Assembly (NCBI GenBank): GCA_032718475.1 | Contig: JAUCBJ010002175.1 | Coordinates: forward strand, 1-47,378 | Reading direction: 5' to 3' | Origin: Nemertoderma westbladi | Lineage: Eukaryota; Animalia; Xenacoelomorpha | Length of the DNA stretch: 47,378 bases | Part shown: positions 1,256 to 36,418 of the stretch, one piece after another | Layout: each line of letters starts with the position of its first letter | Position numbering within the stretch: position 1 is the first letter of the stretch | Translations under genes and position numbers: made by a program | Notes under the pieces: model-generated | Told to the model about the DNA's origin: nothing | Databases searched by the model: none | Seen by the model: only the letters and a program-made list of their open reading frames with translations

Positions 1256-1736
1256 TAAGTATGATTTTATGCTACATACTTACGTTTACGTACACTCTTA
1301 TCAACTAACATTAATTAGTGCTAGGTAGTAATAGGTAAGGTACTTAGTTTGTTTCAGTTTAAATATTTTGACAGTAGTTTTATATTATGTCTGCACAGGT
1401 GCAATAAGTTTCTGCTTCCTCCACCTCATTATTAAACATTAAACATTTCTGATGTCATTATTTAAATTTGACCTCGTCGTTTCTGCTAAATAAATAGAGA
1501 CACTTGGCACACCCAAACTGGCCCCATAATAGATTCGCCCATGTGAAGAATACCAAAATTTCACTTTTCAGACGACTTTTTATTGGAATTTTAAGAAGAT
1601 TTTTTATTTTTCTTAATTTATCTTTATTAAGTGCTTTATAGCGCTTGTTTCTGTCTTATAACCTGTACATATATTAATTCGTTTATTGTTTTGGTTAGAT
1701 TTAGTCAGCCCTTCTGTAACCTGTGTTTTTGGTGAA

Positions 1737-3704
1737 AACCTGGTATTCTTCCTTCACAATGGGGGTAACTGCAAACTGAAATATAACGGCATAAAGTCTG
1801 GTATTCTTCACATGGGCGTAACTGCAAAGTGAAATATAACGGCAGAAAGTCTGGTATTCTTCACATGGGCGTAACTGCAAAGTGAAATATAACGGCAGAA
1901 AGTCTGGTATTCTTCACATGGGCGTAACTGCAAAGTGAAATATAACGGCAGAAAGTCTGGTATTCTTCACATGGGCGTAACTGCAAAGTGAAATATAACG
2001 GCAGAAATCCTGGTATTTTTCACATGGGCGTAACTGCAAAGTGAAATATAACGGCAGAAAGTCTGGTATTCTTCACATGGGCGTAACTGCAAAGTGAAAT
2101 ATAACGGCAGAAAGTCTGGTATTCTTCACATGGGCGTAACTGCAAAGTGAAATATAACGGCAGAAAGTCTGGTATTCTTCACATGGGCGTAACTGCAAAG
2201 TGAAATATAACGGCAGAAAGTCTGGTATTCTTCACATGGGCGTAACTGCAAAGTGAAATATAACGGCAGAAATCCTGGTATTTTTCACATGGGCGTAACT
2301 GCAAAGTGAAATATAACGGCAGAAAGTCTGGTATTCTTCACATGGGCGTAACTGCAAAGTGAAATATAACGGCAGAAAGTCTGGTATTCTTCACATGGGC
2401 GTAACTGCAAAGTGAAATATAACAGCAGAAAGTCTGGTATTCTTCACATGGGCGTAACTGCAAAGTGAAATATAACAGCAGAAATCCTGGTATTTTTCAC
2501 ATGGGCGTAACTGCAAAGTGAAATATAACGGCAGAAAGTCTGGTATTCTTCACATGGGCGTAACTGCAAAGTGAAATATAACGGCAGAAAGTCTGGTATT
2601 CTTCACATGGGCGTAACTGCAAAGTTAAATATAACGGCAGAAAGTCTGGTATTCTTCACATGGGCGTAACTGCAAAGTGAAATATAACGGCAGAAAGTCT
2701 GGTATTCTTCACATGGGCGTAACTGCAAAGTGAAATATAACGGCAGAAAGTCTGGTATTCTTCACATGGGCGTAACTGCAAAGTTAAATATAACGGCAGA
2801 AAGTCTGGTATTTTTCACATGGGCGTAACTGCAAAGTGAAATATAACAGCAGAAATCCTGGTATTTTTCACATGGGCGTAACTGCAAAGTGAAATATAAC
2901 GGCAGAAAGTCTGGTATTCTTCACATGGGCGTAACTGCAAAGTTAAATATAACGGCAGAAAGTCTGGTATTCTTCACATGGGCGTAACTGCAAAGTGAAA
3001 TATAACGGCAGAAAGTCTGGTATTCTTCACATGGGCGTAACTGCAAAGTGAAATATAACGGCAGAAAGTCTGGTATTCTTCACATGGGCGTAACTGCAAA
3101 GTTAAATATAACGGCAGAAAGTCTGGTATTTTTCACATGGGCGTAACTGCAAAGTGAAATATAACAGCAGAAATCCTGGTATTTTTCACATGGGCGTAAC
3201 TGCAAAGTGAAATATAACGGCAGAAAGTCTGGTATTCTTCACATGGGCGTAACTGCAAAGTTAAATATAACGGCAGAAAGTCTGGTATTCTTCACATGGG
3301 CGTAACTGCAAAGTTAAATATAACGGCAGAAAGTCTGGTATTCTTCACATGGGCGTAACTGCAAAGTTAAATATAACGGCAGAAAGTCTGGTATTCTTCA
3401 CATGGGCGTAACTGCAAAGTTAAATATAACGGCAGAAAGTCTGGTATTTTTCACATGGGCGTAACTGCAAAGTGAAATATAACAGCAGAAATCCTGGTAT
3501 TTTTCACATGGGCGTAACTGCAAAGTGAAATATAACGGCAGAAAGTCTGGTATTCTTCACATGGGCGTAACTGCAAAGTTAAATATAACGGCAGAAAGTC
3601 TGGTATTCTTCACATGGGCGTAACTGCAAAGTTAAATAAAACGGCAGAAAGTCTGGTATTCTTTACATGGGCGTAACTGCAAAGTTAAATATAACAGCAG
3701 AAAG
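1737..3704. repeat. 53-bp tandem satellite, about 37 copies
   Basis: Unit cagaaagtctggtattcttcacatgggcgtaactgcaaagtgaaatataacgg repeated head to tail with no spacers; a partial unit resumes at 16247. Confidence 0.97.
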
Positions 3705-4896
3705 TGTTCGCGCTTTCAGACCTTTGGCAGTTTAACCCGCCAAATTAGGATGTCTTCTAGATAATAAATCACTTTTAGCCTCTGACAAGTATTTGATTCA
3801 CTACACTAGTCGAAACCAATCGGTGCGCGATCATTCACCCGCTGGATATACCCGGGAGATTGGGTTCGACGGCTTAATCGTATTGCTATGTAAGCCTAAT
3901 GTATTATTCGACTGACAGTATTATATAATCTCTGACAATATTATTCACCTTCGGGGAATATTAACAGTTCCTTTAGGACGTGGCGCTCTATCTATATAAA
4001 CAGAGTTATGACTTAAACTACTCACAACGATATGGCTTAGTTACAATTCACATATATGGCGCATTCTTTAGGAAATGCTTCGTTATCAGTCTCACTCATA
4101 CACAATGCTGCACAATACTGCACACTGATCTGCCGATCTTCACTGATTTTAGTCACATATAAAAGGAACACGGACCGAATCATGTAGGGTCTATCAAATA
4201 ACATTAGATTCACTTCAAACCACTTTAACATAAGTCACAATCGTTATATGTAACCTTTCTCTCTTACCTTCGGTATATCAAGAATATTGGGTTTTCGGGG
4301 TTATTTATCGTTATTCCAAATATAATAATTCATCAACCATATTATGAAGAACTGACAGTAAATAGCAGTATAACAATATAAAAGTATGCACAGGTTGTTT
4401 GATTAGGTATGGTATGTTATGTATGTTATGAGTTGAGTTGAGATAACGGATATATGTCCTTATAATTAAGCCTACTAGTGTAAGACTAAAAACTGAAAAC
4501 ACGGAGGTGCCAAAAGCCGGTTCTTAGGCTCTGGGCAAAACATAACACTGAACTACTGAGTTTCTGTATACACCTCCAACACAGAGACAACAAACGCTCT
4601 GATTGGTCAACCTGAACAACGAGAGAACAAAGAAACAAAGAAACGTCGACGTGGCAATATCAGCTGTTAGCCGTCGTCATGGTAGCGACACTGTTTTCAA
4701 GAGTATCCAGCTTATCGCATCACGAGATTACGGATTATGTCCTCTAAAGTACAAATACAGTACAAATACAGAAGAAATGACTTTTATGTCCTCTAAAACA
4801 CCAGTACAGCAAGGACACGGCCTTTTTATGCCTGGCAAACCAACTACAGAGTACTTTAAGGGAAAATAACCGGTTAATGACGCAAAAGCTTTTACA
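3705..4896 (-). repeat. 3' LTR
   Basis: tgttcgcgc...gcttttaca; matches 15055-16246 apart from about 6 substitutions seen by eye. Confidence 0.95.
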
Positions 4897-4906
4897 CCGC
4901 TCCCAG
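4897..4906 (-). promoter_or_regulatory. Putative polypurine tract
   Basis: Minus strand reads CTGGGAGCGG immediately before TGTAAAAG of the 3' LTR; short and imperfect. Confidence 0.5.
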
Positions 4907-4974: not shown

Positions 4975-6306
4975 TTAGTCTTTCTTACGCAGACGGCGTT
5001 TACGCAGTTTTTTGAGGCTAGCAAGAGTCTTTCTCTTTGGGGGGAGCCACTTTACTAGGAGGGCCATAACTCCTAGGTGAAGGGTGCAATATGATTGCAT
5101 CAGAAGGTGTAGGATTATGGTCGAGGTATCTGCCGTTTCGATATGCTTCTCCTCGAGCTGATTTTCCTCCGCTTGTAGCTGGATACGTTCATCCAAAAAC
5201 TCTCGCAGAGAATAGGATCGTCCAAGTTCGATAACTTCTTAGAGATTCTGGATTTCCCAATCGAATTGAGATAAGGCCAATTCGTTTATCGATTGGACTT
5301 ACTGTTATAACTTACGTTTATCTGAACAAACGCAGGTTTCTTTTTTGATCTTTATAGAATAGCGTTTAACTCGTTTCGTACAACGCTCTCCTTCACCTTG
5401 ATGTGGGGTTGTATCGCGTTAAACGGGGACGACCATACGGTTGGATAGTGATATTAGGTGTCCGTGTCACAATCCGGCTAGGTAAGATGGGCGGCTAGCT
5501 AGAAATCACTGTCGGAGTGTTACCGATTAATTGTTAGGGTAGCACTAGATCTTTGAACAGTGAATACAGTCCGCGAGGATCCGCGACACCACCAGGATCG
5601 CAGGTCTGAGGTCCAACTAAGGAATGAGGAGGTTTGACCGAGTATTCCGGGACTCTGATCGTAGGTTTACTCCAGGATCGTTCGAGCCGAGTGAGCATAG
5701 GTGATACGTCAAACAAGTTTCGCTCGAAACTCCAGTAAATATAACGAGCACAACTGTGTTTAAAACAACGTTTCCGTGGATGTTTATGTCTTTCCGTTTA
5801 TTGGCTGAGTCTAGGGCATTTATCGTAGTAATACCAAAGACTCACGTCTGGTAGGGGAAACGCGGGTGATATTTATTTGTTGTTACAATGCTTCTATCAA
5901 AAATTCCAAATATACGTTGGAGTTACCGCGTCCATTTGTTTCTTTAGTGTCTTTTCTTTCGAGTCGATTTCGAATAGAATTTTCGCATTCGAATTTCAGT
6001 TTATGGTTCCGACTCCGCTGGGCAGGATATATAGTCGACATAGTCCGTATTGTGTAAATCGATAGGATGATCAGTAGTTAAGAAGCCCATATACGTACCA
6101 TTACGCTGCGTATATCGAGCAGCGAATTTTCTATAGTCCAACTCACGCGTGAGCTGCTCTTGGGACATTGGCGGTTCGATATAACGACCATCGTCCTCCG
6201 CAGCAGTTGGACTAACGTCGCCGCGTATTAAGCTATCAACAAACGCCTGTAAAAGTAGAGTATATCACTCCCCGATACCAAGACCATCTTCTATCAACTC
6301 CGTCAT
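4975..6306 (-). pseudogene. Decayed second ORF of the LTR element (env position, unknown product)
   Basis: Protein-like minus-strand frames: 6306-6001 MTELIEDGLGIGE*YTLLLQAFVDSLIRGDVSPTAAEDDGRYIEPPMSQEQLTRELDYRKFAARY...; 5716-5534; 5196-4975 ending in a hydrophobic stretch plus a basic tail. Several stops and frameshifts. Confidence 0.35.
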
Positions 6307-7140
6307 ATCTGCTATATATGAGTTTATCCATATTGTAAGGAGTTTATATTTAGGCTAGCGAGCGTCGCTGCCTACCCCAATCAGCCCCCGGACAGTGCGA
6401 GATCCTCAGCGCCGATGTGTCGTCGCCGCTGTACTTTCGCCAACGACGTAGCCGCACAACGACAGCGACAACCGGCACAAGTCACTCGACTGTCCGTCCC
6501 AAAGGCTTAGATACACCTCAGGTTCTTACTGGAGAGTTAGGGTTACTTTCACAATTGCGACTCGCTACTGTAAACACACCTTAGTAGTAACATTCGCCTA
6601 TAAACTCACAAATACCACACACACAACTTGTCACAAATTACACACACTCGGGCCATTTGTCCGTTAGTCAATGCCTTCCAGAATGTCACTGTATTATTAT
6701 GTATCCTTGGATACTAGCAGTGCGCTATTTATTCCCTATGCTATTCAATGAGACAAGCTTTCTATTGTTCTTTTAACTCCATTCTAATTCTAGCGTGGTT
6801 GTTGCTATGGTGACATTATGTAAAGCTAGCGGTAGAATTAGGGTAATTCCAATGCATCCAGATCTGGGATGTTATTTAATAGTAATTCTTTAATGGTCAA
6901 TGTCCTGTTTTATACATGGCTTTATGAATTTTATCGGCTATTGACTATGTTTGGGAGACTTTCGCACACTCATACGCATAAGAAGATAAATCTCCGCTCC
7001 CTTGATCTATGAATTAATGGAATTTTGGGAATGTTATAAATTGCGTAAAAATGGCAATTTATTAAATTCATTAAAAGGCATGAATTTAAATTTATTCCCT
7101 GAAATTTTATTATTTGATAATTAAATTGACATGTTTTGAT

Positions 7141-7960: not shown

Positions 7961-10900
7961 TTACGTTATGGAGTCCCTAGATGTTTGAAGGATTAGGGAG
8001 GTGGTCGTGGGAAGAGAATCTTGCCTTCCACAGTTTCCGGAGAGTCCTCCATTCCCTTCCGGTAAACACAAACGACCGACTGGGTGATTGAGTCGCTGCA
8101 TCCCGAATACAATTCCAGGTTTCCTCTTCGTCCTGGAATAGTGACGATAGAAACATCGCTCTAGGTACACGACGGCCTTACAAAGCCGATTCCAGGAGCT
8201 ATAGTGGTCCGTCGCTCCCTGCAGGAGAGGTGAGAGTCCCTGCGAGACGTCTGATGTTCCAGAGCTCCAATCGCTCTCTCTGATCTTCATGAAGGATCCA
8301 CTCGCGGTGGGGAGGTCCAGATCCACGGCGTCGTCCCTGGCAATATGTAATACCGACAGATCTATCCCGGGTTCAAATAACTCCGATCCACCCGTCCGGG
8401 TTTTAGGTTTGACTTTCTCCGCTCCCTTGGCTGGTCTAATCTCAGTCGGAGTAAGATGGGGAGGCCATTCATCCTCCTTACTCAGGAAGTCGGGTTCACC
8501 TAACCGGTCTGTAGTATCTGTCAGTTCTTGAGGAGTTGCTCCTCTGGAAGCGATGTCAGTTGGATTAAACTTCTTGGGGCAATATCTCCATTGATCTACA
8601 TTGGAGCTAATATCGTCATTATCTGAGGAGTATGGTGTTCCCTCAGTTGGGTCGTCTCCCTCACTAGTATCATCTTCCCATTCACTCACCTGGCGGACGT
8701 GATCTTGAAGCAGTCTTTCTCTGAGCGTTCTTCGGGAAGGTCCAGTAAGGTACCAACCTACTCTAGTTCTTACCGCATAGGTCTGAAGTGGTTGCGGTTG
8801 AGCAGGTCGTTTCTCCAATGTCTCCAGCGCCTCATGCGCGTTTTGACCGATTAATATTTGTACTCCAGGATAATCGGTGTCGAATCTAGGGATGTTAAGT
8901 TGTTGGGCATGATCATCTTCGTCCCAATTATAAGGTTCCACTTGGGTGGTAGCGAAGTTCTTTATTGCCACCATTTTGACTGACCTTATACTGTATTCTC
9001 CTGGTTTATCCTGTGGAGTGGACAACTCACCTATATAATAGTCGGCAGCTACAGTAGAATTCCAAACCTGCATGATCCCTGACATGTTTAGCTTGGTTCG
9101 GAACTTGGGTTGTCCAGCAAAGATGACTTCGGCTAGTTCTTTATCGATGAATGTTCCTGTGCTACCGGAGTCCAGGAGGGCGTTCACTATATAGCTCTTC
9201 TGAGGTCCGTGGACCCGTAACTGGACTACAGGAAATTCTCGGATTCCTATATTGTAAGTTGGCGCTTTCCAAGATTGTTGTTGATCTGAAGTAGTTAGGG
9301 TGAGGTCGCTGTCTGTGTCTTTCTCATGCACGAGTGCTCGATACACTGCGGTGGTGTTTATTAGGTAACAGGATTCGTTTTGGTCGGAGAACTCGTCCGT
9401 ATAGAATCCTTCCATCTCAGATTGATCAGTGTCGTTCACATCACTGAATTGGACATGTAGTTCGGACTCACTTACCTGACTCGGGCTGTTTCGTTCGAAT
9501 TCCGTGTGCAACAAGATATGATGTTTCGCACCGCACTTTGCACACCTTGCGTCGGAGTAACAGGTTCGCCGTTGGTGTCCTCGTCTGAGACAATTATAAC
9601 ACAACCGCTTATCCCACATGACTTCCCGTCTCTCTTTTAATGATTTCTTTAAGAATTCATCGCACATATTCAAGCGGTGGGGCCCGTCGCACAGCACACA
9701 TTTGGGTTTGATGTTACTTACTTTAACCTGTGCTGTGTGGTGCACACTTGTTCTTTCCTCGGGCTTTCTTACATGAATTCTCTTGGGAGACGTAGGAGGG
9801 GTTTTTCTTACCGGTTCTCTTCTGTCATTGGATCGAGACTTGAATTTACTTACCTGTTCTATAGGCGCTTTATTGCCATAATAAGATCTTTTAGTGTCTT
9901 TCCCGCTATCCTCTCCTTGAGAAGTCTGGCTTTCGCCGTCGTCTGTATAACACACTGGTGTTACCCTTCTCCTAGAAACGGGTTTCTCACTTACCTTGTT
10001 TTCCAATGTCTTCTCTCTGGACTGCCTTAGGAGCTGTAATTTCACTTCTCCATCTAGGAATGACATGAGATCAGCCATGGTAGGGTCTCGTCGTTGTTGT
10101 TCCATCATATATAACACTTTCTTATCCCAGCGTGTACCTACTCCACCCTTCGGTAAAGTAGAAGCCACTGCTCTAATAACCATAGCACTCTGATACTCAT
10201 GAGACTTACCTAGCCAATCTAATTGTCTGCAGATCTCCTGAATTTCATCGGAAAACTCTATAATCCCGCTGCTAATAAACTTTCGGGGCGCTACCAACTT
10301 TGCATACAAATACCCAGCTATGTTATTCCTATTACCATACCTGATGTTTAGTGTATCCCAAACTTGTCTTAATCCGTCTGGATGTCCAATAAACCTTAAC
10401 GCCATTAACTTGGGAGATCCTTCCAAGCATTCGATGAGGAATCTAAGTTTCTCTCCATTAGATAGCACAGAGTTCTGTATGTTATCTTTGTAATATTCAT
10501 TAAAAGGTAACCATTTCATCTCATCTCCATTGAACTTGACGATCTCTCCCACCTTTACCGCTTGCCGGGCTTCGGTTCTAGCCATTTGACGCGTAAAACT
10601 TTCTTGGGCCATCGTGTTATTTAATATCGAGTTATCGGTATATAAATTTCTCGGATTATGATCCGTTCTATATGGAATATCATTATCAACAGGTCTATAA
10701 TTACCCTTAATAGGGTTCACTATAGGAGTTTCTACTTCGCTAGCAGTATAGATGCGTGTAGGCTCCACACCTTGCGCATGCGATACTTCAGACCTAACAG
10801 GTTGACACATTGTTACAGAGGGTGGTGGTATACCCTTTTGTGCATTTACTAATTTATCGCGTTCTAGCGCGATACTTTGCTGCACTTCTTGCAACTCTAG

Positions 10901-12874
10901 CCTACTTTCCCTTACTGTGCCTTTGAATTGTTGAACAGTCTCCTGCATCTGTCCGAGCAGGAGATCCATCCCCCGCCGTCTCTCGTCCACCCATTCGACC
11001 GCCGAAGCGGGAGTCGCCAACGTTGTAGCGGGCGGACGAGGGACAACGGGCGACAAATCATGAATATTTCGCTCGGGGTCCAGGACCTGAACTGTCTCCT
11101 GGGCAGTTCTACTGGGCACAGGTAGCTTAGTGCTATGCAGAGGGAATTTAGAGGTAGCTTCAGGGAGCACAGGTGTATCTATCACCGAAGGGGTGATTTC
11201 AAGAACAGGCCCAATTATTTCAGGCTCATCTACTATAGTAGGGAGTCTTTCTATTTTAATTGTTTGGTCTGTGGGTTCTGTACTACCTAAGTTGGTGTTA
11301 TTTAGTTGCCTTCTAACAGCTGGAGGCAAATCAGGCAATTTCTGACGGTGGAATGTTCTTTTACGTCTGCTTAGACGAGATCTATTTCCTTTGCCTTCAG
11401 TATCGGTGGTATCGCCTTCCTCAGATGATGTATATCCCTGCCTTTTGGGAGTAGATCGATTCATCATCTGCATATTACTAGCTGTTAACTGTTTATTTAT
11501 GCAGTCTTGATTCTCCTGAATGTTTTCCAATTCTAATTGGGTGGTTTCTTCAGCCGCTCTCCGTTCTGCTTCTGCCACTGCCTCCGCCACTTTTCTTTCC
11601 GCTTCGGCCGCTGCCTTTGCCTCTGCCACTTTTGCCTCTGCCGCTGCCTCTTTTCTTTCTGCTTCTGCAGCTGCCACTGCTGCTGCTACTGCCGCTGCCT
11701 TTCTGTCTTCTATACGTTTTTTCTTTACTTGTTCTTCTTGGACTCTGGTGATGCGGAGTTGTTCATCAAATTTAGCCTGGTTCGCAGCCCTCATTTCCAC
11801 ATCGATGGCATCCAACACAAGCTTGGTTCCTTCACTATTAGGGCTAAGTCCCTCTAACCTTCTCCTCAACTCGTCATCACCTAAAAAACGTTGATAGTCT
11901 GACAGATAGATGTCAATGGCATCCCTCTTATGCGGTTTCTCTGCCGTCGCTTCACTTTCCACTTGGGAAAAAGTAGCATCTGTTGATTCTCCATGGGTTG
12001 AGCGCTCCTCCAGCTGAGCTTTCCACCGAGCTGCTCCCTGAACTTGGCGACTCACCCGTTGAAACCAAGTCTTTACGGCAACTTGCAACGACGTGTCTTG
12101 TCTTCTTTTAGAAGCCTCTTCAAAGGCTGATAATATTAGCCTGATTCGCAGAATTCTTTCTCTAACTTGATAAAGCAGTTGTCCCTGCTCCTGAGGTCCT
12201 TGAGGTTGTTGTAACAGTTGTTTTTCTACTCGCTCCATAGAGCTGAAGAATCCCTGTGCGTATCCGGCTGCGGACCTCTTCCACACAGCTGGATCGATGG
12301 TTTCCTTGGCTACTCCCATCCGGTGTATGTCTTCCCAGGCAGCTTCTGATAAATCAAACGGGAGTCCGGGTCCGGGGAAGTTCCATTGCGACTCGACAAT
12401 AGACTTCAGTTCTTCCCTCGTGTATCCCGCATAATTATCTTTAGTTGATCGTTGACTTCTCGCCCAATCGATCTGGTGTTCTTCCACTGCAATCAATAAC
12501 CTAGTGAGTACGGCTGCAGGAAGGATGAGAAGGGGATCCGAATAAACCGCTTCCGTCATCTTTGCTCCGCGCTCGGGTGTCAGCTCTACAGTATCCTCAC
12601 TACTGGAGCTGTTGGGCCGTTGAGAAATAAGTTCTTGGCTAGCGGGTTGTTGCTGTTCTGCTGCTTCTTGGTCCCGCTTGACCTGAGCTCGAGTGCCTAT
12701 GATAGACCTACGATGTTGGACCAGCCTAGGTTCCGTTATTACTACTGGAGGGATGACCTTCCTCACAGTGGGAGGTGAACTGAACTTACGACTAGACGGT
12801 TCTACGCCTCTATCTGAGTCGCAGATAGTTACATCTAATAAACTGTCTGACAGGTTCTGCTTAGTATCAGACAT
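7961..12874 (-). CDS. BEL/Pao Gag-aspartic protease polyprotein, 1637 aa, with RT and most of RNase H deleted and no integrase
   Basis: DUF1759-like capsid region (FNGDEMKWLPF...LSNGEKLRFLIECLEG), three Cys/His knuckles (CVLCDGPHRLNMC, CYNCLRRGHQRRTC, CAKCGAKHHILLH), protease NALLDSGS...ILIG...TRVGWYLTGP, then directly the RNase H C-terminal motif QWRYCPKKFNPTDIASRG and the YSSWNRL linker. Confidence 0.92.
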   Translation of the reverse strand: MSDTKQNLSDSLLDVTICDSDRGVEPSSRKFSSPPTVRKVIPPVVITEPRLVQHRRSIIGTRAQVKRDQEAAEQQQPASQELISQRPNSSSSEDTVELTPERGAKMTEAVYSDPLLILPAAVLTRLLIAVEEHQIDWARSQRSTKDNYAGYTREELKSIVESQWNFPGPGLPFDLSEAAWEDIHRMGVAKETIDPAVWKRSAAGYAQGFFSSMERVEKQLLQQPQGPQEQGQLLYQVRERILRIRLILSAFEEASKRRQDTSLQVAVKTWFQRVSRQVQGAARWKAQLEERSTHGESTDATFSQVESEATAEKPHKRDAIDIYLSDYQRFLGDDELRRRLEGLSPNSEGTKLVLDAIDVEMRAANQAKFDEQLRITRVQEEQVKKKRIEDRKAAAVAAAVAAAEAERKEAAAEAKVAEAKAAAEAERKVAEAVAEAERRAAEETTQLELENIQENQDCINKQLTASNMQMMNRSTPKRQGYTSSEEGDTTDTEGKGNRSRLSRRKRTFHRQKLPDLPPAVRRQLNNTNLGSTEPTDQTIKIERLPTIVDEPEIIGPVLEITPSVIDTPVLPEATSKFPLHSTKLPVPSRTAQETVQVLDPERNIHDLSPVVPRPPATTLATPASAVEWVDERRRGMDLLLGQMQETVQQFKGTVRESRLELQEVQQSIALERDKLVNAQKGIPPPSVTMCQPVRSEVSHAQGVEPTRIYTASEVETPIVNPIKGNYRPVDNDIPYRTDHNPRNLYTDNSILNNTMAQESFTRQMARTEARQAVKVGEIVKFNGDEMKWLPFNEYYKDNIQNSVLSNGEKLRFLIECLEGSPKLMALRFIGHPDGLRQVWDTLNIRYGNRNNIAGYLYAKLVAPRKFISSGIIEFSDEIQEICRQLDWLGKSHEYQSAMVIRAVASTLPKGGVGTRWDKKVLYMMEQQRRDPTMADLMSFLDGEVKLQLLRQSREKTLENKVSEKPVSRRRVTPVCYTDDGESQTSQGEDSGKDTKRSYYGNKAPIEQVSKFKSRSNDRREPVRKTPPTSPKRIHVRKPEERTSVHHTAQVKVSNIKPKCVLCDGPHRLNMCDEFLKKSLKERREVMWDKRLCYNCLRRGHQRRTCYSDARCAKCGAKHHILLHTEFERNSPSQVSESELHVQFSDVNDTDQSEMEGFYTDEFSDQNESCYLINTTAVYRALVHEKDTDSDLTLTTSDQQQSWKAPTYNIGIREFPVVQLRVHGPQKSYIVNALLDSGSTGTFIDKELAEVIFAGQPKFRTKLNMSGIMQVWNSTVAADYYIGELSTPQDKPGEYSIRSVKMVAIKNFATTQVEPYNWDEDDHAQQLNIPRFDTDYPGVQILIGQNAHEALETLEKRPAQPQPLQTYAVRTRVGWYLTGPSRRTLRERLLQDHVRQVSEWEDDTSEGDDPTEGTPYSSDNDDISSNVDQWRYCPKKFNPTDIASRGATPQELTDTTDRLGEPDFLSKEDEWPPHLTPTEIRPAKGAEKVKPKTRTGGSELFEPGIDLSVLHIARDDAVDLDLPTASGSFMKIRESDWSSGTSDVSQGLSPLLQGATDHYSSWNRLCKAVVYLERCFYRHYSRTKRKPGIVFGMQRLNHPVGRLCLPEGNGGLSGNCGRQDSLPTTTSLILQTSRDSIT

Positions 12875-14194: not shown

Positions 14195-14775
14195 TGAATA
14201 ATAAATATTACGCTACGCGTACAAACCACTCAAACAAAATGCAGACCAAACACTGACAGACTACTATCAAGCCTAAATAAACTACAGGACATGCAGACTC
14301 CGAAATGATTAGGTAGTATGCGTTCTAACCCAGTAGTACGACTTATTCTTTAGTTGGGGGTTTACCTTACAGCATTGGCTGCCCCTACTTCCTAACCGTT
14401 CTTTATCGGACAGAGGCTCTATACACACTGCAATCTGTTCAGACCTAATAACAGCCAGACAACTATCCAGCCTACAAATTATCTAAATAAATATTATACG
14501 CTACCCGTACAGACTTACACAAACAAAGTACAGACTAAACGATGGCAGACTACTCTCAAGCCTAAATAAACTACAGGACATGCAGACTCCGAAATGATTA
14601 GGTAGTATGCGTTCTAACCCAGTAGTACGACTTATTCTTTAGTTGGGGGTTTACCTTACAGCATTGGCTGCCCCTACTTCCTAACCGTTCTTTATCGGAC
14701 AGGTGATCTACACACACTGCAATCCGTTCAGACTTAACAACAATCAGACAACAGCTCAGCCTACAAATTGTCTGT
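14195..14775. repeat. 289-bp tandem duplication in the leader with a 147-bp identical core
   Basis: 14267-14413 is identical to 14556-14702; the flanking parts of the units are diverged. Confidence 0.9.
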
Positions 14776-15042: not shown

Positions 15043-15054
15043 TATATCCGTTAT
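15043..15054 (-). promoter_or_regulatory. PBS position, non-tRNA type, complementary to the element's own LTR
   Basis: Minus strand ATAACGGATATA directly abuts the 5' LTR end with no TGG; the LTR minus strand carries TATATCCGTTAT at 15793-15804 and 4443-4454. Confidence 0.6.
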
Positions 15055-16246
15055 TGTTCGCGCTTTCAGACCTTTGGCAGTTTAACCCGCCAAATTAGGA
15101 TGTCTTCTAGATAATAAATCACTTTTAGCCTCTGACAAGTATTTGATTCACTACACTAGTCGAAACCAATCGGTGCGCGATCATTCACCCGCTGGATATA
15201 CCCGGGAGATTGGGTTCGACGGCTTAATCGTATTGCTATGTAAGCCTAATGTATTATTCGACTGACAGTATTATATAATCTCTGACAATATTATTCACCT
15301 TCGGGGAATATTAACAGTTCCTTTAGGACGTGGCGCTCTATCTATATAAATAGAGTTATGACTTAAACTACTCACAACGATATGGCTTAGTTACAATTCA
15401 CATATATGGCGCATTCTTTAGGAAATGCTTCGTTATCAGTCTCACTCATACACAATGCTGCACAATACTGCACACTGATCTGCCGATCTTCACTGATTTT
15501 AGTCACATATAAAAGGAACACGGACCGAATCATGTAGGGTCTATCAAATAACATTAGATTCACTTCAAACCACTTTAACATAAGTCACAATCGTTATATG
15601 TAACCTTTCTCTCTTACCTTCGGTATATCAAGAATATTGGGTTTTCGGGGTTATTTATCGTTATTCCAAATATAATAATTCATCAACCATATTGTGAAGA
15701 ACTGACAGTAAATAGCAGTATAACAATATAAAAGTATGCACAGGTTGTTTGATTAGGTATGGTATGTTATGTATGTTATGAGTTGAGTTGAGATAACGGA
15801 TATATGTCCTTATAATTAAGCCTACTAGTGTAAGACTAAAAACTGAAAACACGGAGGTGCCAAAAGCCGGTTCTTAGGCTCTGGGCAAAACATAACACTG
15901 AACTACTGAGTTTCTGTATACACCTCCAACACAGAGACAACAAACGCTCTGATTGGTCAACCTGAACAACGAGAGAACAAAGAAACAAAGAAACGTCGAC
16001 GTGGCAATATCAGCTGTTAGCCGTCGCCATGGTAGCGACACTGTTTTCAAGAGTATCCAGCTTATCGCGTCACGAGATTACGGATTATGTCCTCTAAAGT
16101 ACAAATACAGTACAAATACAGAAGAAATTACTTTTATGTCCTCTAAAACACCAGTACAGCAAGGACACGGCCTTTTTATGCCTGGCAAACCAACTATAGA
16201 GTACTTTAAGGGAAAATAACCGGTTAATGACGCAAAAGCTTTTACA
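15055..16246 (-). repeat. 5' LTR
   Basis: Direct repeat of 3705-4896 at offset 11350; lies upstream of the gag ORF on the minus strand. Confidence 0.95.
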
Positions 16247-17714
16247 GAAAGTCTGGTATTCTTTACATGGGTCAGATAATCCCACCTCATATCTGATAAA
16301 AAAAATTATGATTCCTCAGAGATGGAGCGCACTTTACGCTAGATGCTATCTTCCTATCTTATGTGAATAACCTAACCTACTGTAAGTCTGTAAGGTGTAA
16401 TGCGTAAATAAATACAGTATAGTCAGTGATGTAATTCTTACCTCAATGATATTTTAAATTTCAATAGGCCTATATATAATTTAAATTCGATATACTGTAC
16501 TGTAAGCTTACAGTTAAGCGTACAGACGACCACAGATACCTCTAGAACACAGAGCTGGAGATTTGTACTGTATATAGGAAAGGGAAAGTGCTGTAGAAGA
16601 TACAAAAAAATACACCAGGAGTGCGAATACCCTAGGGACATTTAACCGGGGAGTGAAAATTTTATGTTACACCGGTAGTGCAAACAAACCATGGCCGTTA
16701 CTAAGCCTAGCTAGATACGATTAATACTGTAATACAGGATAGATGACTTGGAAGAAGTCATTTTGTTATACCTGTGCATCTTTTGAAGGTGTACCGGTAT
16801 AATTCATCTGTGCCATATATTCCTGATTCATTGAGAGTTACAGTAATTTTACGAGATTTAGACTGAGTTCTCACCGTTTAAAAACCGAGCTGGGACGCTG
16901 GTCTCGCATTCCCAGAGAGCAGCTCTATTCCTATAGCGGTGGCGAAGTTCAGTCAGAAGCTAATATGTACTTTTATATTGTCCGAATGTCCGTTTACCAA
17001 TTATATCAGGGTAATTTTTGACGCGTTAAATTACAACAGTCTAAATTATCTAATGCAGTTAAGGGCGGATATGGGTCTACTATCATTATGTAGAGTTATC
17101 TTTGAATTTTGAGGTATTTTAATAATACGGAAAATGTTTGTTAATTGTTTATCTATCAAGTATCTATGGACATAATTTTGGGTTTTACTGTGTTAATGAT
17201 TTTTGGTATATTTGTTTATTTATGCATTTATTTACCGTGATTTGGTTGAAATTGAAATTGTTTTGTTTAATGACATATTCGTTAAAGGTACTGCTGTACT
17301 GGTAATATAGTTAGTTAAACACATTAAAATTTGCACTCAGCCATGCTAGATAAAAAGCACCACAGAGATGTGCTGTGTAAATAATACTTAAATAAAATTA
17401 AATTTAAAATTGACAAACTGAACATGAATATTAAATGACGTAATGGTAAAATTGAATACACACTTATACGGTATATGGTTAATTCTATCTAATACATACT
17501 TTATGATAATCAAACGAAATAAAACTGCAATATTTAAAATATATGTACTTAATAATTTTTTTATTTCAACTATAAGTTTTATCAAGTAATAAAGAGTGCT
17601 AATTATAATTAGGAAAAATAACTTAATTTATTTACTTGGTGACAATGGAAGGCGGGGTATAGACATCATTAAATGTGTTTTTCCAAGAACCGCTGCAATG
17701 CATAATTAAATTTA

Positions 17715-21986: not shown

Positions 21987-24207
21987 TACTACTACTACTA
22001 GGTCGAGCGAACTCGGACAGTGGAAATGAGATCCTTCCAGGCTTCCCGATTCTCCATAGTTGTCGCAATTTCGTTTCTCCCAAGTTCAGTATCCCTTTCA
22101 AGTTGATCTATATATGTTATGGCCGGTCGTCCACGACTACGCTTTCAATGAGTTGGTTGCCAGAGAAGTAGATCTGGTATGACCTCGTCTTTACTTCGCC
22201 AGCAGTGCCCACTGAATCTTAATCTGCGTTCACGGAGGGTGGTTGATATAGGTGGTATTGTACCATAAAGTTCGGCGTTTGTCATTTGTTGTCTCCAGTT
22301 GATGTTTAGGGCTGCCCTTAGTAGTCTTGTGTAGCAATCATCAATTCGTTGTTCAAGTGATTTAGTCAGTGTCCAGGTTTCACCCCCATATAAAAATACA
22401 CTTTCCACTGTGGCTCGAAAGAACTTAGTCTTCAGGTGCCTGGAGAGATCTGATTTCCAGATGGTATCCATTTTTGATAGAGCTACCCAAGCCTTTGCTT
22501 TCCTAATTTCTATGTCCTTTTTGCTACTCTCTATCCATGATCCAAGGTACTGGAAGTCATCGACCTTCCTTAGTTGATTATTATCAATGGTTGTCAAGTT
22601 TCCATCAACATTAAAGGTCATGAATTCGGTCTTTGTAGCATTTATATGCAATCCAACCTCCTTAGCAGCCCTCTCCACTTTATTTAGTAGAAGCTGTGCA
22701 TTTGCTGGGGTATTAGAGAGCAGGGCGATGTCATCCGCAAAGTCGGTGTCTGTGACTGTAGTTGCCGGATATCTACTTCTTCTGCGTTCTTGAAGTGTGA
22801 CCGTCCTCATTGCGTAATCCAGCACAATTACAAATAGTAATGGTGCTAATGTGTCACCTTGCAGTACGCCAGCCAGGATTGAGAAAAACTCAGTTTCACC
22901 ATCTGGTGAGAGCACCTGCGCTTCTGTGTCACAATATAACAATCCAATGCCAGCAACAATTACTTCTGGTATTCCATAAGCTCTTAGGATTTCAAGCATT
23001 TTACCTCTATGGATGGAGTCGAATGCCTTCTTGAAGTCCACAAAAGTCATGACAGCGGGGAGATTCTTTGACTTAATTCCTTCAATCAGTCTCCGTAGTG
23101 CAAGTATCTGAGCTATTGTTGATCTACTTGGTCGAAATCCGTTTTGGCTCTTACGCAGTAGTTTCTCTATGTGAGGCCTAATCCTATATAGAATCATTTT
23201 ATTGTATATTTTGGCAGCTACCACAAGCAGAGAGATCCCACGATAGTTTGTTGGTATGCCGAGGTCTCCTTTCTTGGGGAGAGGCTTTAGTTGACCTTTA
23301 GTCCAAATTGGTGGTGGCTTTTCCCCTTTTAACATCCGGTTGCAAACATTAAATAATGGTCTGTTTAGCACTCCGGTTTTCCATACCTCCGCTGGGATTT
23401 CATCTAATCCACTCGCTTTATTATTGGACATGCTTTTGATGCTTCTTTGGAGTTCGGCAGGAGTGAAGTCCCCTGTTTCTATAGGTAGTGTCTTGTCATA
23501 TATTTTCCTTGTAGGGCTGACCTCGATGTTTGGTGGCTGCCCAAGCAAGTTGCTGAAGTGATTTTTCCACTTCCCAACACGTTCTTCAGGACTATCGGCT
23601 TTGAGGCGCCCCTTTGCACAACTTTTCCGACCAGATACCTCATTTACAGTTTGCCAGGTAAGTCTTGATTGTTGCTGTATGTGAGCAGTTGTAATTGCTT
23701 CAGTTTTATCCTGTATGTACTTTTCCTGGCTGATGTTGTAGGCCAATTTAAGATCGTCCTTAGCTTTCTCAACCTTTTTCATGTTTTCGGTTGTTGGTTG
23801 TTCGGTTTTAACTTTGTAGGCTATCTTAAGATCTTCTCTCTTACAAGTAACATCAGAGTTTTGCCATGGCACATATTGTTTTCGTTTGGGTTTCTGGGGG
23901 ATATGCCTCTTAGCTGATTCCTTGTGGGCTGTTATTATATTCTGGTATATTGAATTGGTGGATTGGTCTTCATCCATTGACTGAAGTGCTTCAAAGCGGT
24001 TTTGAACTTCTACTGTATAAGCATCCTTTACAGCATTGTCAGTTCTGAGTTTTTCCCAGTCATATTTGATTTGCTTGCTTGTCCTGGGTTTACTGGCTCT
24101 CAAACTGAGTCTGATCTCTGCAGTCACAATTCTGTGGTCCGAACCAATTAGGTTGAACGAGCTGTATGCCTCGCAGTTGATCATGCTGTTTCTCCACTTT
24201 TTCGACG
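21987..24207 (-). mobile_element. RTE-clade LINE, 5'-truncated, with a (TAG)n tail and 12-bp TSD
   Basis: ORF 22145-24184: end of APE domain (SDHRIV), RT motifs NYRGISLL, QNGFR, DFKKAFDS, GVLQGDTLAP, FADD, YLGS. TSD agcacgaggctc at 21975-21986 and 24208-24219. Premature TGA at 22145; the frame continues KRSRGRPAITYID...RVRST to TAG at 21998-22000. Confidence 0.95.
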
Positions 24208-24364
24208 AGCACGAGGCTCAGTTATGAGACATAAAGTAAAATCAAGCGATTCCAACACAAAATACTGTATGTATTTAAGAAATTAAACAAAACCGCCAAT
24301 CAATAAAAATACAGTAGATGGATAATTGAAGAGTTATCAAAAAAGAAAGACAGGCACCTGGCTG

Positions 24365-27980: not shown

Positions 27981-28653
27981 CCGGGGGGGGGGGGGGGGGG
28001 GGCTGGAGGGCTCTGTTTGTCCACAAAATGGCTCGGCCGCACGAGCTTCTAATGAAAAACTGTGAAACAGGTATCGAATGAAATGTTCTCTAGTTGGTGA
28101 GAAAACAAGTCCCTTAGGGTAGTCGGTTCCTTAGGCCCGCCACTAATGTAGTGTTTAAGTGAAGTTAACCAATACCTTCGTTAACAAATTCCCTTCCCAT
28201 GCCATGGACATTTAAAATTCCATAATATATAAATATACATTGTTATTTGTCCAAGTAATAGTGGCTGGGAGATCAAATAGACCAGTTTTTTGTTCTCTCG
28301 CAGCTTCGTCGAATTTTTAGAGAACCGGAACAGCTCACTCAGGGTACTGGTTTGATGGACAGGTTCGTTTAAAGCCAGCTTGCAAACGTTCTAGTACACC
28401 TTAGACTGTTACAGTATGTCGACATTACACATTTTACTGCATTTTTAGGTCCTTTGTTCATTAGCCTGCATGCTGGCATGCGACTGTCAGATTGTACAGC
28501 AGCCGTACGACAGTACGATACACTGATACAGCGATAGGCCTAACTGATACCAGGATACAGAGATAGGCCTACACCTGTACACCAGATAAGAGTACCTCTC
28601 TGTACCCAGGTACCTACCACCTGACCACAACCAGACAACGTCTGAACGTGACT

Positions 28654-29099
28654 ATGGCGGCGACCAGCCAACGTCAACGTTCTACTCAACATGCTCATTG
28701 CGAAAACTGCAGCGAATCATTCCACATCTTCCGGCGCCGCTTTGCATGTCTCCGCTGTAGCCGGTCTTTCTGCAGTAAATGTCTCCGGAAACTGCACAAC
28801 CCGTTGGGCAAATCAGTTCGATTGTGTTCCTGTTGTTTCGTCCTCAATGGAACGCAGCCAGATAGGGTTGCTATTGGTAACCTTAGAATCCGGGACCTCG
28901 TCTGGTTCCTGGAGAGTAAAGGGATAGACGCGAGGCGTTGTTGCGAGAAACGGGAGCTGGTTGATTTGGTCGTGGATTACTTTAAAGATGAGGAAGCTGA
29001 TGCCATGGAGGAGGGGGTCTGGTCGTCTTCGTCGTCATCGAATGGCGAAGAGAGTGGCGGTGAGATGGAGGTACCTAATCCAGGACCGAGCGAGAATCG
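28654..29099 (+). CDS. RNF34: RNF34/RFFL-family E3 ubiquitin ligase, exon 1 (FYVE-like and first SAP-like domain)
   Basis: CENC...FRRRFACLRC...CSKC...CSCC and LRIRDLVWFL...CCEKRELVDLV; ATG at 28654; donor GTTAGT at 29100, phase 2. Confidence 0.9.
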
Positions 29100-29682
29100 G
29101 TTAGTAGGTAGATTATTCAAAATATTATGTTTATTATTTTGTTTGACTGTTCTGCTGTTTGATATTGATTATTATTTCATATTTGGTTTGATATATATCT
29201 TCAAACAATTTGTGTATATCCATACCTAAGATTGGAGATACCCAGTGCCGCTTCTGACTTATCATAACAGAACAGGAAACGTGCCAATGCCAACATGCTA
29301 CTGCACCTGCTGTACTGCATGCATACTGCAGCTTGTTCAGTTTTCTGCATTGTTTGTGGTACGTTGGTACATTGCAGCAATAATTGTACATACTGCATAC
29401 GGTACAGTCGAAAGCATCATGTCTACCAAAAACCATTCAGCTCGGTATATATATGCTGCTAAGGCTAACCATATTTATTTACATGTTTAAAAGGCTTTAT
29501 CAGTTTATAAATATAAACCACTTCTGTCTGTCTGTTTCAGTGTTTCTTTGGAATAATCACCGTCTTTACGGGTGTATTTAACCTTTATCCTACTGGTATA
29601 ATATGCGGGAGCAGTCCTGCCCTGTTTGACAGATTAAATAGGCCTACAGGAGATCTCCGCGGTGTAGTGTATTAGTGTTCCT

Positions 29683-30810: not shown

Positions 30811-31203
30811 TGTGTGATTTCGACGATTGACATTGTGTCAAGTACAATGCACACATCTCCAACCAGACACTATATAACATTGGAGGTGTCTCATTGGTTC
30901 CCCCAAGCTTCACACTAGAACAAAATCGCCTCCGCTTTGCAGGACATTGCTTTCGCCGTGAGGACCAGCCAGTGCATAATCTTGTACTTTAGCAGCCTCA
31001 TGGAGTGAATAAGCGTGGTGGACAGCCCATGACTTTCTTGAGACGCATCTTAAAGGACAGTGGCCTTAAAGATGCGGATGATCTAGCAAATGTCATGGGT
31101 GATAGGGAGTTGTGGCGGTGCAATTTTGTCGACAAGCCGGCACAGCATTCTTAAAAATGCAGCTGCAATGCAGCATGCCGATTCTAGTAGTAGTAGAGTA
31201 GTA
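30811..31203 (+). mobile_element. RTE LINE 3' fragment in intron 3
   Basis: NRLRFAGHCFRR motif, (TAG)n tail, TSD gagatcgactg (30800-30810, 31204-31214); near-identical to 38811-39040 inverted. Confidence 0.9.
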
Positions 31204-31316
31204 GAGATCGACTGACAGTATCCACAATATTATTAATATTTATGGCAATTTGCTTATCCAGTTTGTTTTGTAAGTGTTCCATCGCTTTATTGTCGTCAAT
31301 ATATTATTTTATTTAG

Positions 31317-31668
31317 AATTGATTTTGGTTCGATAACCACGGAATCGCAACTGGACAATCTTAGTGTCCGCCAACTCAAACTGATTCTCATGTCCCATCT
31401 GGTCGATTACAGTGGCTGCTGCGAAAAGTTCGAGTTGTCGAACAAGGTGAAACAGCTGTGGCGCTCGCGGGTACACGGGCGGGCCGACGCCGAGGAAATG
31501 GCCGTGGGCGACGCCGACTTGTGTAAGATATGTATGGACGCGGTGGTGGACTGTGTCCTCCTCGAGTGCGGACATATGGTGTGCTGTACGCAGTGCGGAC
31601 GGCTGCTTAACGAGTGCCCAATATGCAGACAATACGTGAGCCGTGCAGTGCATACATATCGGTCCTAG
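31317..31668 (+). CDS. RNF34: RNF34/RFFL exon 4 (second SAP-like domain and C3HC4 RING)
   Basis: LSVRQLKLILMSHLVDYSGCCEKFEL...LCKICMDAVVDCVLLECGHMVCCTQCGRLLNECPICRQYVSRAVHTYRS*; the four exons total 1101 nt, 366 aa. Confidence 0.93.
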
Positions 31669-31728
31669 TGCCATAAACAACTAATACATTGTTATTTTTA
31701 TTAATAATTCTTCGTAGAACGCCATTGT

Positions 31729-32459
31729 GTCAGTTCATATAGAAACCAGACAATTCCGGACAGAATTCATTTTGAGAAAATGGAGAATAAAGTTTAAAAA
31801 CTATTTTTACAAAAGTTGTTTTTTCAAAATATGTTTATTTGCATTCAACATAAAAGTTTTGTCGGTCTGTCCGACTGTCAGTCTTAATATTGTCTGTCAA
31901 ATTATTCAATGATTCTTAACTCTTGGGAGGCTGGGCGCATTGAAATTATGGGGCTTTTCTTGGGGTCGCTGATTTCATTTCTGATGTCAGTTTTTGTGTT
32001 TGATGGAGTCAAGACTGTTTTTATGTCTGTCGGACAGACCCGACATACATGCAGACACACATTCAGTCTAGATCTCTTCGAGCATGAAAACTGACATCAG
32101 AAATAAATTATCTGACCAAAAATACCCCCACTACGAAATTTTAGTTAGCTAGAATGACTGGCAGACAGACAGTCAGACAGACAGTCGAACATAGAGTTAA
32201 GATTTACTTTGATTTTTTTGAGCATTTAAATCAAAATTACTATGTATACAAAAACAATTACTGTGGGTCGCAATTACATGTGGGTGGGTTCTAGGGATGC
32301 GACAGAGCTAAAATTGGCGCGGATCTCCGGAGCCGGAGCCGGAGCTCTGTCGCATCCCTAGTGGGTTCATTTGAAAGCAAATTAAAATGCGCTTCTTATG
32401 CAATACATAACTAAACAAGTAATTTTTATCGGAATCGTCTGGTTTCTATTTGCACTGAC
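31729..32459. mobile_element. Non-autonomous TIR element just downstream of the RNF34 stop codon
   Basis: Imperfect 30-bp inverted ends gtcagttcatatagaaaccagacaattccg / cggaatcgtctggtttctatttgcactgac. Confidence 0.65.
32292..32360. mobile_element. 69-bp hAT mini-element
   Basis: 18-bp TIR tagggatgcgacagagct, 8-bp TSD gtgggttc (32284-32291, 32361-32368), internal ccggag repeats. Confidence 0.9.
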
Positions 32460-33344
32460 CTGGACAAATTCGATAGATAAAGATACGGTATTCCAGCTGC
32501 TACCCTAGAGTACCGGTACACTTTTATTGATTATTACATTAAAATGTTAAGCTGATCACTCATAATCTTTGAGGATAATATGTGCATTTAATTTGATTTT
32601 AAATAAAAGACAATGTACATGTACGTACATACCGAAAGAGAAAGATTATTCTATACCAAAGGTGTTGAAATCCCACCACTTAGTTTCCGAGTTGGTCTAT
32701 ATATATCCCGCAAGTACATCTGGAGCCATTATCATATTACATTTATACGCAAACACTGAGGATTCGGAATCAAATGGAGATCTTATTGGAATCCATTGCA
32801 GATGAGATCATTAATGATCTTTAGATTTATTACAACATACATTTTTGTTTTGATTGGGTCTCACCAGTAAACCCCCCATGTGTTACTTAGACGGCCCAAA
32901 AAACGGAAACTAAATATTTAGCTATTGTTTAACCGTTCATAAAGTAAGTAGTAGGCCTACACACTAAATTCTGAATTTCATGCCGTCCACATTATACAGT
33001 AAATATATTATAAATTGGTCATGTCAAAGCCGAGTTGGGATGTGGGGTCCGGTTTACAATAATTAAATATATTAAGATAATTATGAGGAAACCAAAATCA
33101 ACCACGTTATTATAAAACTATAAAGGGGGGATAACAAATTACACAACTTACGAAATTACGAATTTCTAGAAATTGTTTTAACTAAAAAAGCAGCGCGGAA
33201 ACGGGCCTTTAGCCATACATTTTACTATGTATGTCCAGATGTCACCGCGTCATTATTAGATTGTTCTAGAAAGTTCGGTGCATAACTACAAATAATTCCC
33301 CAGAAATAAATAAAATTAGATTCGCCATTGTTCAATAACTATTT

Positions 33345-33483
33345 ACATCATTGTGTGCAAAGTAGGACTTTGCAGCGTTATGACCCGAGTTTATTTATAT
33401 ACCGAGCGAGCGCAGCGAGGGAGGTTTACATAAATAAACAAGGATCTTTAACGCCGAAAAGTGACCTTTGCAAGCAATGATGT
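33345..33483. repeat. Long imperfect hairpin (possibly the end of a Crypton-like element)
   Basis: acatcattg...tgcaaag...ccgagcgagcgcagcgaggg...ctttgca...caatgatgt; same architecture at 36706-36842. Confidence 0.5.
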
Positions 33484-34355
33484 TACATTATCAATAATGG
33501 GCGGCCCACAAGTGCCGCTATAATGTGCAAGCAATTTTGTTACATTATCTCAACTTATCAGCGTTCGGAATGTGAAGAAAGGATTTTATGGATGCTCATT
33601 TATACATTTTAATCATGTAGGGCCTACTATATCGAATATAAGTGAAATTTATTAACAGGTACACAGTATTAATTATACATTTAAATCTAATTAAAGTTTA
33701 TTGGAAGTTATCTCCTGCATGGATGTGATAAATCATTAATCTATCTTCAGTATATACGACTGACTCAGACTGAGTCACCGTCTGTGTCCGTTCAGTTTTA
33801 CCTAACACTGTCGCCATTTTCTTTGGTCATTTTCTCTAAAGTGTCTTCTATTGGACGTAATGGATTACAGTACGAGTAGGGTACACGTTAAACAATTATT
33901 TACATACAGTAGCTAGTCCCGTCACTGCAAACTGGATAATAAAGCAGCAATCATTAACATAAATGGAAATAATACATTCTGGAATACGGTAATTGAAGTT
34001 GTTTCCATGTCATTGATTACTTTACAGCGTTCCGTCCTATAGGCCGTCCTATGGGCGTTACGAGTAATTCACAAGAACGCTGGTCAGGTGACAATGTAAC
34101 TAAGTTAGCACTTTAAAGCTTTTACGGCCATCATGCCAACGCTATATTTTATGAACAATGACGACATTAGTATTTATTTGTATGGAATTAATTTCGCACT
34201 ACCAAATGGCCAGGGCGTCATATTTTCCAACTTTATATCGCAGTGCGACATTATTTCTCAGTGTGTCTCTACGCCATACATTTTACTATGTATTTCCAGT
34301 ATGACACCGCGTCATTCTAAATATAATTACATGACGTCATTCGAATCCACACTAA

Positions 34356-34871: not shown

Positions 34872-34916
34872 TTACTATTTTACAATTCTAAAAAAATTGA
34901 AATAGAAATTGAAATA

Positions 34917-35120
34917 GGTCAGAATCGAACCAGCGTCCTTTACATTCATAACCCAAGGCGTTATGCACTGCGATAGTTAGTAAGAGATATAAGTGTTTAT
35001 TGTTAATTTTCGAATCCACACTAACTATTTTACAATTATAAAACGTACAAAATTGAAATAGGTCAGAATCGAACCAGCGTCCTTTACATTCATAACCCAA
35101 GGCGTTATGCACTGCGATAG
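34917..35120 (-). repeat. Two tandem tRNA-derived (SINE-head-like) units, 144-bp period
   Basis: Minus strand tatcgcagtgcataacgc...ggacgctGGTTCGATTC gives A-box and B-box motifs; no intact cloverleaf. Confidence 0.65.
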
Positions 35121-36311: not shown

Positions 36312-36418
36312 TAATAACCTATGATTCTGGTTTAAGAATGTGAGTCAAGAACTTTCCTACAGTAGATATTTTTCCGGAAATAAATTTCCTATTTTTTTTT
36401 ATATAAAGTTTACTTTTA

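Follow-up and report, generated by a model that had tools for sequence, protein, structure and literature searches.

The stretch analysed here, referred to as the window, covers positions 1 to 47,378 of contig JAUCBJ010002175.1 from the Nemertoderma westbladi assembly GCA_032718475.1, and its minus strand carries a young retroelement whose way of priming reverse transcription is the subject of this report. The element is bounded by a pair of long terminal repeats (LTRs) of 1192 bp each, which start with TG, end with CA and are 6 substitutions apart. Between them lies a single long open reading frame (ORF), with its ATG at 12874 and its stop at 7961, which encodes gag and protease with DUF1759 (40.9 bits, for a Pfam cut-off of 25.4), and PF05380 is carried by 13 of 14 homologues. 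By its type of gag and protease the element is a member of BEL/Pao (Belpaoviridae), as the earlier note on this DNA had already proposed, and it shows the structural traits of that group, namely, TG..CA LTRs, a target-site duplication and a polypurine tract. No close relatives of the protein were found, the best 150 matches being 24 to 38% identical. Since only gag-protease and a short piece of the RNase H end could be aligned to a full-length relative, the element is non-autonomous.

The 12 nt expected to form the primer-binding site (PBS), 15054..15043, adjoin the end of the 5' LTR. In agreement with the earlier note, no TGG was found there, and TGG is absent within 8 nt after the LTR both in this element and in 10 relatives. 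The 18-nt tRNA PBS given in the Belpaoviridae profile of the ICTV, the international committee for virus taxonomy, as a trait of this phylogenetically defined family was not found in the window element, and ARAGORN returned 0 tRNAs for the window and 0 for the 82 relative loci described below. The PBS is the exact complement of 15804..15793 on the same strand of the LTR; both this complement and its copy in the 3' LTR (4443-4454) had been reported before and were confirmed, the pairing ending at 12 nt. Among 20,000 dinucleotide-shuffled LTRs, 5 gave a 12-nt match at offset 0, and 12 of 20,000 gave one when offsets of 0 to 4 were allowed. Such a match also occurred at 16 of the 32,549 pseudo-PBS positions taken from the rest of the window, and in 4 of 5,000 PBS shuffles when spliced matches were also permitted. 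By shuffling, p was between 2.5e-4 and 8e-4, for an earlier estimate of about 1e-3 or less. Using canonical donors, a spliced partner for the window PBS extended over at most 6 nt. The U5-leader stems said to flank the pairing (actgc/gcagt and aagc/gctt) are present but at chance level: a stem of at least 5 bp arose in 2,968 of 5,000 shuffles, and the pair probability of both stems was below 0.005 in all four folds.

The LTR has further features of its own. Three related motifs, GGACATA..GT(A/T)AT, are found at 16141, 16092 and 15809 (minus strand), the third of which holds the 12-mer, and a strong donor-like AG/GTAAG lies downstream of the 12-mer, at 15617 (minus strand). AATAAA and ATTAAA are absent from the LTR, and an AATAAA is present at 15022, about 20 nt after the PBS. 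Rfam gave 0 matches over the element.

We then compared PBS and LTR in relatives, namely, 82 BEL/Pao loci from protein-guided scans (4 + 78; best 80 of 511), which were chosen by likeness to a starfish-annotated protein and not to the window protein. The end of the 5' LTR was fixed by its divergence from the 3' LTR after CA in 12 loci, corresponding to 10 families; among five fixed-end loci checked, only L001 has a target duplication. None of these 10 families carries TGG at the PBS, and thus relatives with a TGG tRNA PBS, which the earlier note had named as evidence that would speak against self-priming, were not encountered among them. In 9 of the 10 families, 11 to 16 nt of the PBS pair across an LTR junction, for which only GT and AG were demanded. 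Although only GT was demanded of the donor, it reads GTAAG or GTGAG in eight of these nine families. L001 has a contiguous 11-nt pairing at offset 4, seen by eye. Own-LTR pairing spans 11 to 15 nt in all 11 elements, the window element included, lengths reached by 0 to 8 of 5,000 shuffles each, and the PBS partner is 0 to 4 nt from the LTR end in every one of them. Cross-pairs reached 11 nt in 6 of 110 combinations, all among L016, L021 and L031, and the window PBS paired with at most 6 nt on foreign LTRs. Covariation of PBS and LTR word had been proposed earlier as a check; across relatives, 10 of 10 pair with their own LTR and cross-pairs are rare.

A scan blind to these ends, run on the 67 loci whose flanks were long enough, found the fixed end again in 9 of 12 loci and added 16 candidate loci; its shuffles reach 11 to 15 nt, and lone 11-nt matches are not significant. 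The working set comprised 25 non-redundant relatives, 23 split and 2 contiguous; no two of the 25 share a paired word, and the median pol identity, calculated among 24 of them, is 48%. Left out were L028, L066, L027 and L042 as duplicates (L021 being replaced by L023), L015, L019 and L022 (an 11-nt match with a side of 1 to 2 nt or a weak donor), and L004, whose LTR end is unfixed. A scan for CA+TGG in 20 unjudged loci gave scattered matches, unconnected to any LTR end.

The PBS complements a predicted LTR splice junction in L003, L005, L016, L021, L024, L029-L032, L035, L041 and L043, as well as in L046, L058, L059, L063, L064, L067-L070, L076 and L077, and the introns of the junction-pairing relatives, with donors GTAAG/GTGAG, measure 75 to about 1,000 nt. 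At 28% to the reference, L004 is a distant BEL/Pao element; within L004:1-140 a contiguous complement of 20 nt starts 6 nt past what appears to be the LTR end, and its 3' LTR is preceded by an additional acidic ORF-like stretch. L001 to L004 are animal-type BEL/Pao elements in contigs filed under bacterial metagenome-assembled genomes, likely host contamination.

In addition to the pairing itself, the relatives share a sequence frame. With positions anchored at the 3' end of the core helix, all 25 relatives have A at -2, 22 have C at -1 and 21 have A at -13; G or C occurs at -16 in 19 and at -17 in 21, and CA occupies -14/-13 in 13 of 25 (background, 5%). The window shares A at -2, C at +1, A at -13 (15805), C at -14, and G at -16 and -17. 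Upstream of the core, past an LTR-side bulge of mostly 3 to 5 nt, a second helix pairs with the leader in the relatives. Its summed score was 222 versus 124 (0/2,000 shuffles; 25 relatives), and its own score was 8.9 versus 5.7 for cross-element combinations (0/5,000 permutations), although a broader energy test was weaker (combined z of -2.4; 1 of 25 at p<0.05). Because this second helix covaries, the RNA of the relatives likely extends upstream of the core. In 21 relatives, neither pairing of the primer 3' side with the U5 end (838/5,000) nor U5-leader pairing (3,869/5,000) showed covariation; the R-U5 support pairing next to the PBS, a trait of Tf1/sushi elements, was at chance level in the window and without covariation in the 21 relatives. 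A TATA-like site at a fixed distance was not found in the 25 relatives.

The primer region also has a predicted alternative partner further down the LTR. Segment 15822-15792 pairs with 15437-15384 over 27 bp in four helices, one of which is interrupted by a hairpin, and the same complement is present in the 3' LTR. At -20 kcal/mol it is stronger than the PBS helix, and none of 60 shuffles or of 19 other segments matched it, in a comparison made post hoc. Four of 10 relatives tested for such an inner complement beat all 25 shuffles, and three show nothing; overall, their own value was -12.3 versus -8.8 for cross-combinations (8/5,000 permutations). In the relatives, most inner complements are located downstream of AATAAA, and they extend across the junction; because of their location, a role in masking the 3' copy only was dropped. 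Judged by eye, the inner three-way fold lacks the hammerhead core.

The RNA 5' end probably lies upstream of 15804, unlike that of Tf1, because in relatives the second helix is upstream and an intron donor must be transcribed, and in the window the inner complement covers 15822-15792. A start at 15804 ± 2, as predicted in the earlier note, is thus probably too narrow. The C|A at -14/-13, of which the window A is 15805, could serve as an initiator.

Variation inside the family was followed in contigs of runs X1, X3, X4 and X5, which are unphased and in which substitutions were called among the matches listed. The family is abundant, 13,061 X1 contigs aligning to the LTR region (a figure not to be read as a copy number). 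Two changes in the PBS, at 15050 and 15054, make up 161,089 of 324,285 and 237,216 of 448,161 of the depth in X1, and 90,550 of 196,714 and 90,629 of 254,732 in X3; in X4, PBS changes hold 16.6 of a depth of 20.1. The sites predicted beforehand as partners of the changes at 15050 and 15054 are 15797 and 15793, respectively. Low-depth loose ends in X3 and X5 show the letter predicted for 15793 beside an unchanged next base, for which there is one chance in three, and family depth falls about 100-fold immediately beyond the 12-mer, at 15791-15793. In another subfamily the 12-mer is intact but for one G.U-compatible change at 15798, while both flanks differ. A majority change at 15394 (832,135 of 976,275 in X1) converts the sole G.U pair of the inner helix to A-U. 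For the variant PBS, a spliced partner at AG 15368 was rejected: it has a weak donor and would be broken by a common variant at 15366. The LTR-PBS pattern of the family had 0 matches in metagenome contigs, and three scans of viral contigs found no relative.

In a tree of reverse transcriptase (RT)-RNase H, calculated without L068 and L069, the contiguous L026 is sister to the intron-bearing L041 with a Shimodaira-Hasegawa-like approximate likelihood-ratio test (SH-aLRT) support of 100 and 61% identity, and the contiguous L001 is nested among split elements. Contiguous and split states therefore interconvert.

Taken together, the sequence comparisons suggest that the window element likely primes minus-strand DNA synthesis with its own RNA, a reading to which we give a probability of roughly 0.7. 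What survives of the self-priming proposal in the earlier note is thus the pairing of the PBS with the element's own LTR, which extends to 10 of 10 relatives, whereas its start site, its U3 variant and its U5-leader stems are not supported. Transcription would begin some way upstream of 15804, and the copy of the 12-mer in the 5' part of the RNA would anneal to the PBS. By analogy with Tf1, an RNase H-type activity supplied in trans would cut at the helix end, 15793, leaving a 3'-OH on a primer that would be a longer 5' piece than the 11-mer of Tf1; the enzymes would have to come from an autonomous partner. Strong-stop DNA would then jump to the 3' repeat, and everything upstream of the cut would be copied from the 3' LTR. 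In the relatives the RNA would form the second helix past an A-containing bulge, and most of them would assemble the pairing segment by splicing an LTR intron, the window element representing the contiguous state. Because the 3' LTR would be the template for all that lies upstream of the cut, introns would persist, provided that the 3' copy stays unspliced, and occasional splicing of that copy would yield contiguous elements. The complement further down the LTR would offer an alternative fold, and the match would stay exact because the primer would be copied into the new PBS. We extend this, at slightly less than even odds, to a broad animal branch of BEL/Pao that may have abandoned tRNA: an internal segment of the 5' RNA would prime within a bulged two-helix fold, mostly made by the spliceosome so that only the 5' copy primes, with a U5 helix toggling it off, an intron-less window element, and primer copying that matches the PBS.

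Several observations weigh against priming by the element's own RNA. The variant PBS (15050, 15054) holds about half of the depth in X1 and X3, the matching change predicted at 15797 was not seen, and the sole X4 contig over the 12-mer has the window letters although most of the X4 PBS depth is variant. The predicted probability of the PBS helix was 0.85 to 0.97 with the start at 15820 or below, and 0 with the start at 15822 or above or when 150 nt of leader were added; since the helix depends on the chosen start and leader length, the fold is no evidence for it. Within the shared frame the window has T at -1 and T at -3, each found in 2 of 25 relatives, and its own second helix is not significant (p of 0.19 to 0.26). 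A gag-protease tree, based on an alignment projected on one reference, tentatively places the window element on a long branch outside the clade of the relatives, and homology of mechanism is thus assumed from the shared frame. As to the relatives, L001 was counted only once the offsets had been widened from 0-3 to 0-4, 15 of the 25 were picked partly by eye from the scan whose shuffles reach 11 to 15 nt, and tRNA-primed members may occur among loci outside the judged set.

Four other explanations were considered. The pairing copy might be the 3' one, with TATAAG (15814) as TATA box, a start at about 15784, and the 3' region of the RNA folding onto the PBS to circularise or prime. The earlier note had offered a version of this, in which the 12-mer ends U3. 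TATAAG does lie 30 nt upstream of a TCA at 15784, and in 14 of 21 relatives the paired segment is followed by an AATAAA or ATTAAA (in one case past the end of the LTR), which suits U3 and R alike. However, the fixed-distance TATA is missing from the 25 relatives, and their inner complements lie mostly downstream of AATAAA, across the junction. A spliced 3' copy would moreover lose its intron at reverse transcription, yet it is still present in 23 of 25 relatives, and their 23 spliced forms are all absent as DNA from the 82 loci; intron retention would thus argue against the copied 3' LTR as the pairing copy. We consider this version unlikely. About as unlikely is a regulatory RNA switch acting on translation or packaging, the true primer being another molecule, such as a host small RNA or a protein. 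The stronger partner of the primer region inside the LTR and the same tendency in relatives would suit such a switch. A primer must end at the LTR end to define the LTR terminus, and the position of the PBS partner in all 11 fixed-end elements argues against a switch, as does the fact that no other primer site was seen.

It is quite improbable that the primer is a half or a fragment of a host tRNA, as in certain Ty1/copia lineages, the LTR match being secondary. Half-tRNA priming is predicted in plant copia lineages in passages of PMC6317226, and the ICTV calls Belpaoviridae tRNA-primed (PMC8742986). The constancy of tRNAs, however, cannot explain 25 different PBS words that each track their own LTR. 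The 12-mer also misfits the U33 or T-loop register of the tRNA consensus. Least probable, and hardly credible in our view, is coincidence, or a single inverted duplication that arose in a dead non-autonomous copy: the three GGACATA motifs show that internal duplications exist in the LTR, and the PBS differs in about half of the family depth, but the shuffling p values, the same geometry in 10 of 10 relatives and a frame common beyond the paired bases all stand against it. Priming by the element's own RNA remains our preferred reading.

Positions of the features of the element in the window
Feature	Position	Strand	Basis
5' LTR, 1192 bp, TG..CA	15055..16246	-	LTR-LTR comparison
3' LTR, 6 substitutions relative to 5' LTR	3705..4896	-	LTR-LTR comparison
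Target-site duplication CTTTC, upstream copy	16247..16251	-	sequence
Target-site duplication CTTTC, downstream copy	3700..3704	-	sequence
Primer-binding position, 12 nt, TGG absent	15043..15054	-	sequence directly after 5' LTR
Exact PBS complement in 5' LTR; putative self-primer 3' end at 15793	15793..15804	-	sequence match, frame of relatives
Copy of 12-mer in 3' LTR	4443..4454	-	sequence match
Frame common to relatives, upstream of helix: A -13, C -14, G -16/-17	15805..15811	-	anchored alignment
Inner LTR complement of 15822-15792, predicted alternative partner of primer region	15384..15437	-	folding
Polypurine-tract-like GGGAGCGG before 3' LTR	4897..4904	-	sequence; similar tract in relatives
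Gag-protease ORF, BEL/Pao type; RT and integrase absent, short RNase H-end remnant	7961..12874	-	ORF, Pfam, alignment

The insertion site of the element is the last unit of a 53-bp satellite array, which comprises about 38 overlapping copies (window 1600-3704, 16247-16270). The 2.2-kb leader between PBS and gag contains a tandem duplication (14228-14773; 289-bp period, 91% alike). Between the pol remnant and the 3' LTR, minus strand 4975-6330 is a GC-richer, broken ORF-like region with a basic tail, for which, tested as five pieces, no Pfam matches above cut-off were found. Elsewhere in the window, a 690-amino-acid ORF with an RVT_1 domain (minus strand, 22145-24217) represents a separate retroelement, and host-like ORFs have FYVE (RNF34/RFFL-like) and MOLO1 domains, at 28567-29229 and 39486-40022. 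Inverted repeats at 30977-31195 and 38809-39028 (188 nt at 97% and 30 nt at 97%, about 7.6 to 8 kb apart) enclose smaller inverted repeats, and the structure at 30977-39028 is probably a DNA transposon.

Self-priming is established for Tf1, whose 11-base primer is released by an RNase H cut according to passages of PMC7175516, and has been proposed for Tj1, Tcn1 and TAR elements (passages of PMC7175516, PMC4600332 and PMC6317226). Like Tf1/Tf2 of S. pombe, Tj1 of S. japonicus and the Tf1/sushi group, for which those parts of PMC7175516 and PMC4600332 describe a PBS complementary to an 11- to 12-nt LTR segment, the window element has no tRNA site. In contrast to Tf1/sushi, a Ty3/gypsy chromovirus group, its protein is of BEL/Pao type (Belpaoviridae). 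The relatives differ from Tf1 in that their extra pairing lies 5' of the primer and involves the leader, the primer-3'/U5 pairing showing no covariation, and most of them need intron removal, unlike Tf1/sushi. As in Tcn1 chromoviruses and in the TAR (Houba, Osr-1) Ty1/copia elements, lineages apart from Tf1, self-priming is predicted from PBS-LTR complementarity (passages of PMC6317226); those belong to other superfamilies, in plants and fungi, and the same passages describe no splice-made primer for them.

The ICTV profile of Belpaoviridae gives an 18-nt PBS for tRNA-Arg or tRNA-Gly (PMC8742986), and Achilles, a BEL/Pao element, has a tRNA-Tyr-like PBS according to a passage of PMC4580426. 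The window element shares its gag-protease family, TG..CA LTRs and polypurine tract with the tRNA-primed Tas and Achilles but, unlike them, has no tRNA PBS. LTR elements without a tRNA PBS are also represented by the fungal GalEa copia, with a conserved hairpin site, and by bivalve TRIMs (miniature terminal-repeat retrotransposons); there, however, the hairpin is local and the authors found no LTR complement (passages of PMC5445492 and PMC6934838). The main text of PMC3118150 and that of PMC554778 mention neither PBS nor tRNA nor priming, and BEL/Pao self-priming is absent from the excerpts of PMC3601003, PMC8220671, PMC3118150, PMC554778, PMC4580426, PMC3286476, PMC5443660, PMC5445492 and PMC6934838. 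A literature search, with subscription journals, Repbase notes and supplements outside its scope, found no report of self-priming in BEL/Pao.

With 25 natural sequence pairs, a bulge frame and a predicted cut site, the mechanism is directly testable on short RNAs. If true, it would explain how tRNA-based PBS searches could fail on such elements, and a splice-assembled primer would couple the onset of reverse transcription to RNA processing by the host. It would also extend self-priming to a third LTR superfamily, while the ICTV profile lists Belpaoviridae as tRNA-primed.
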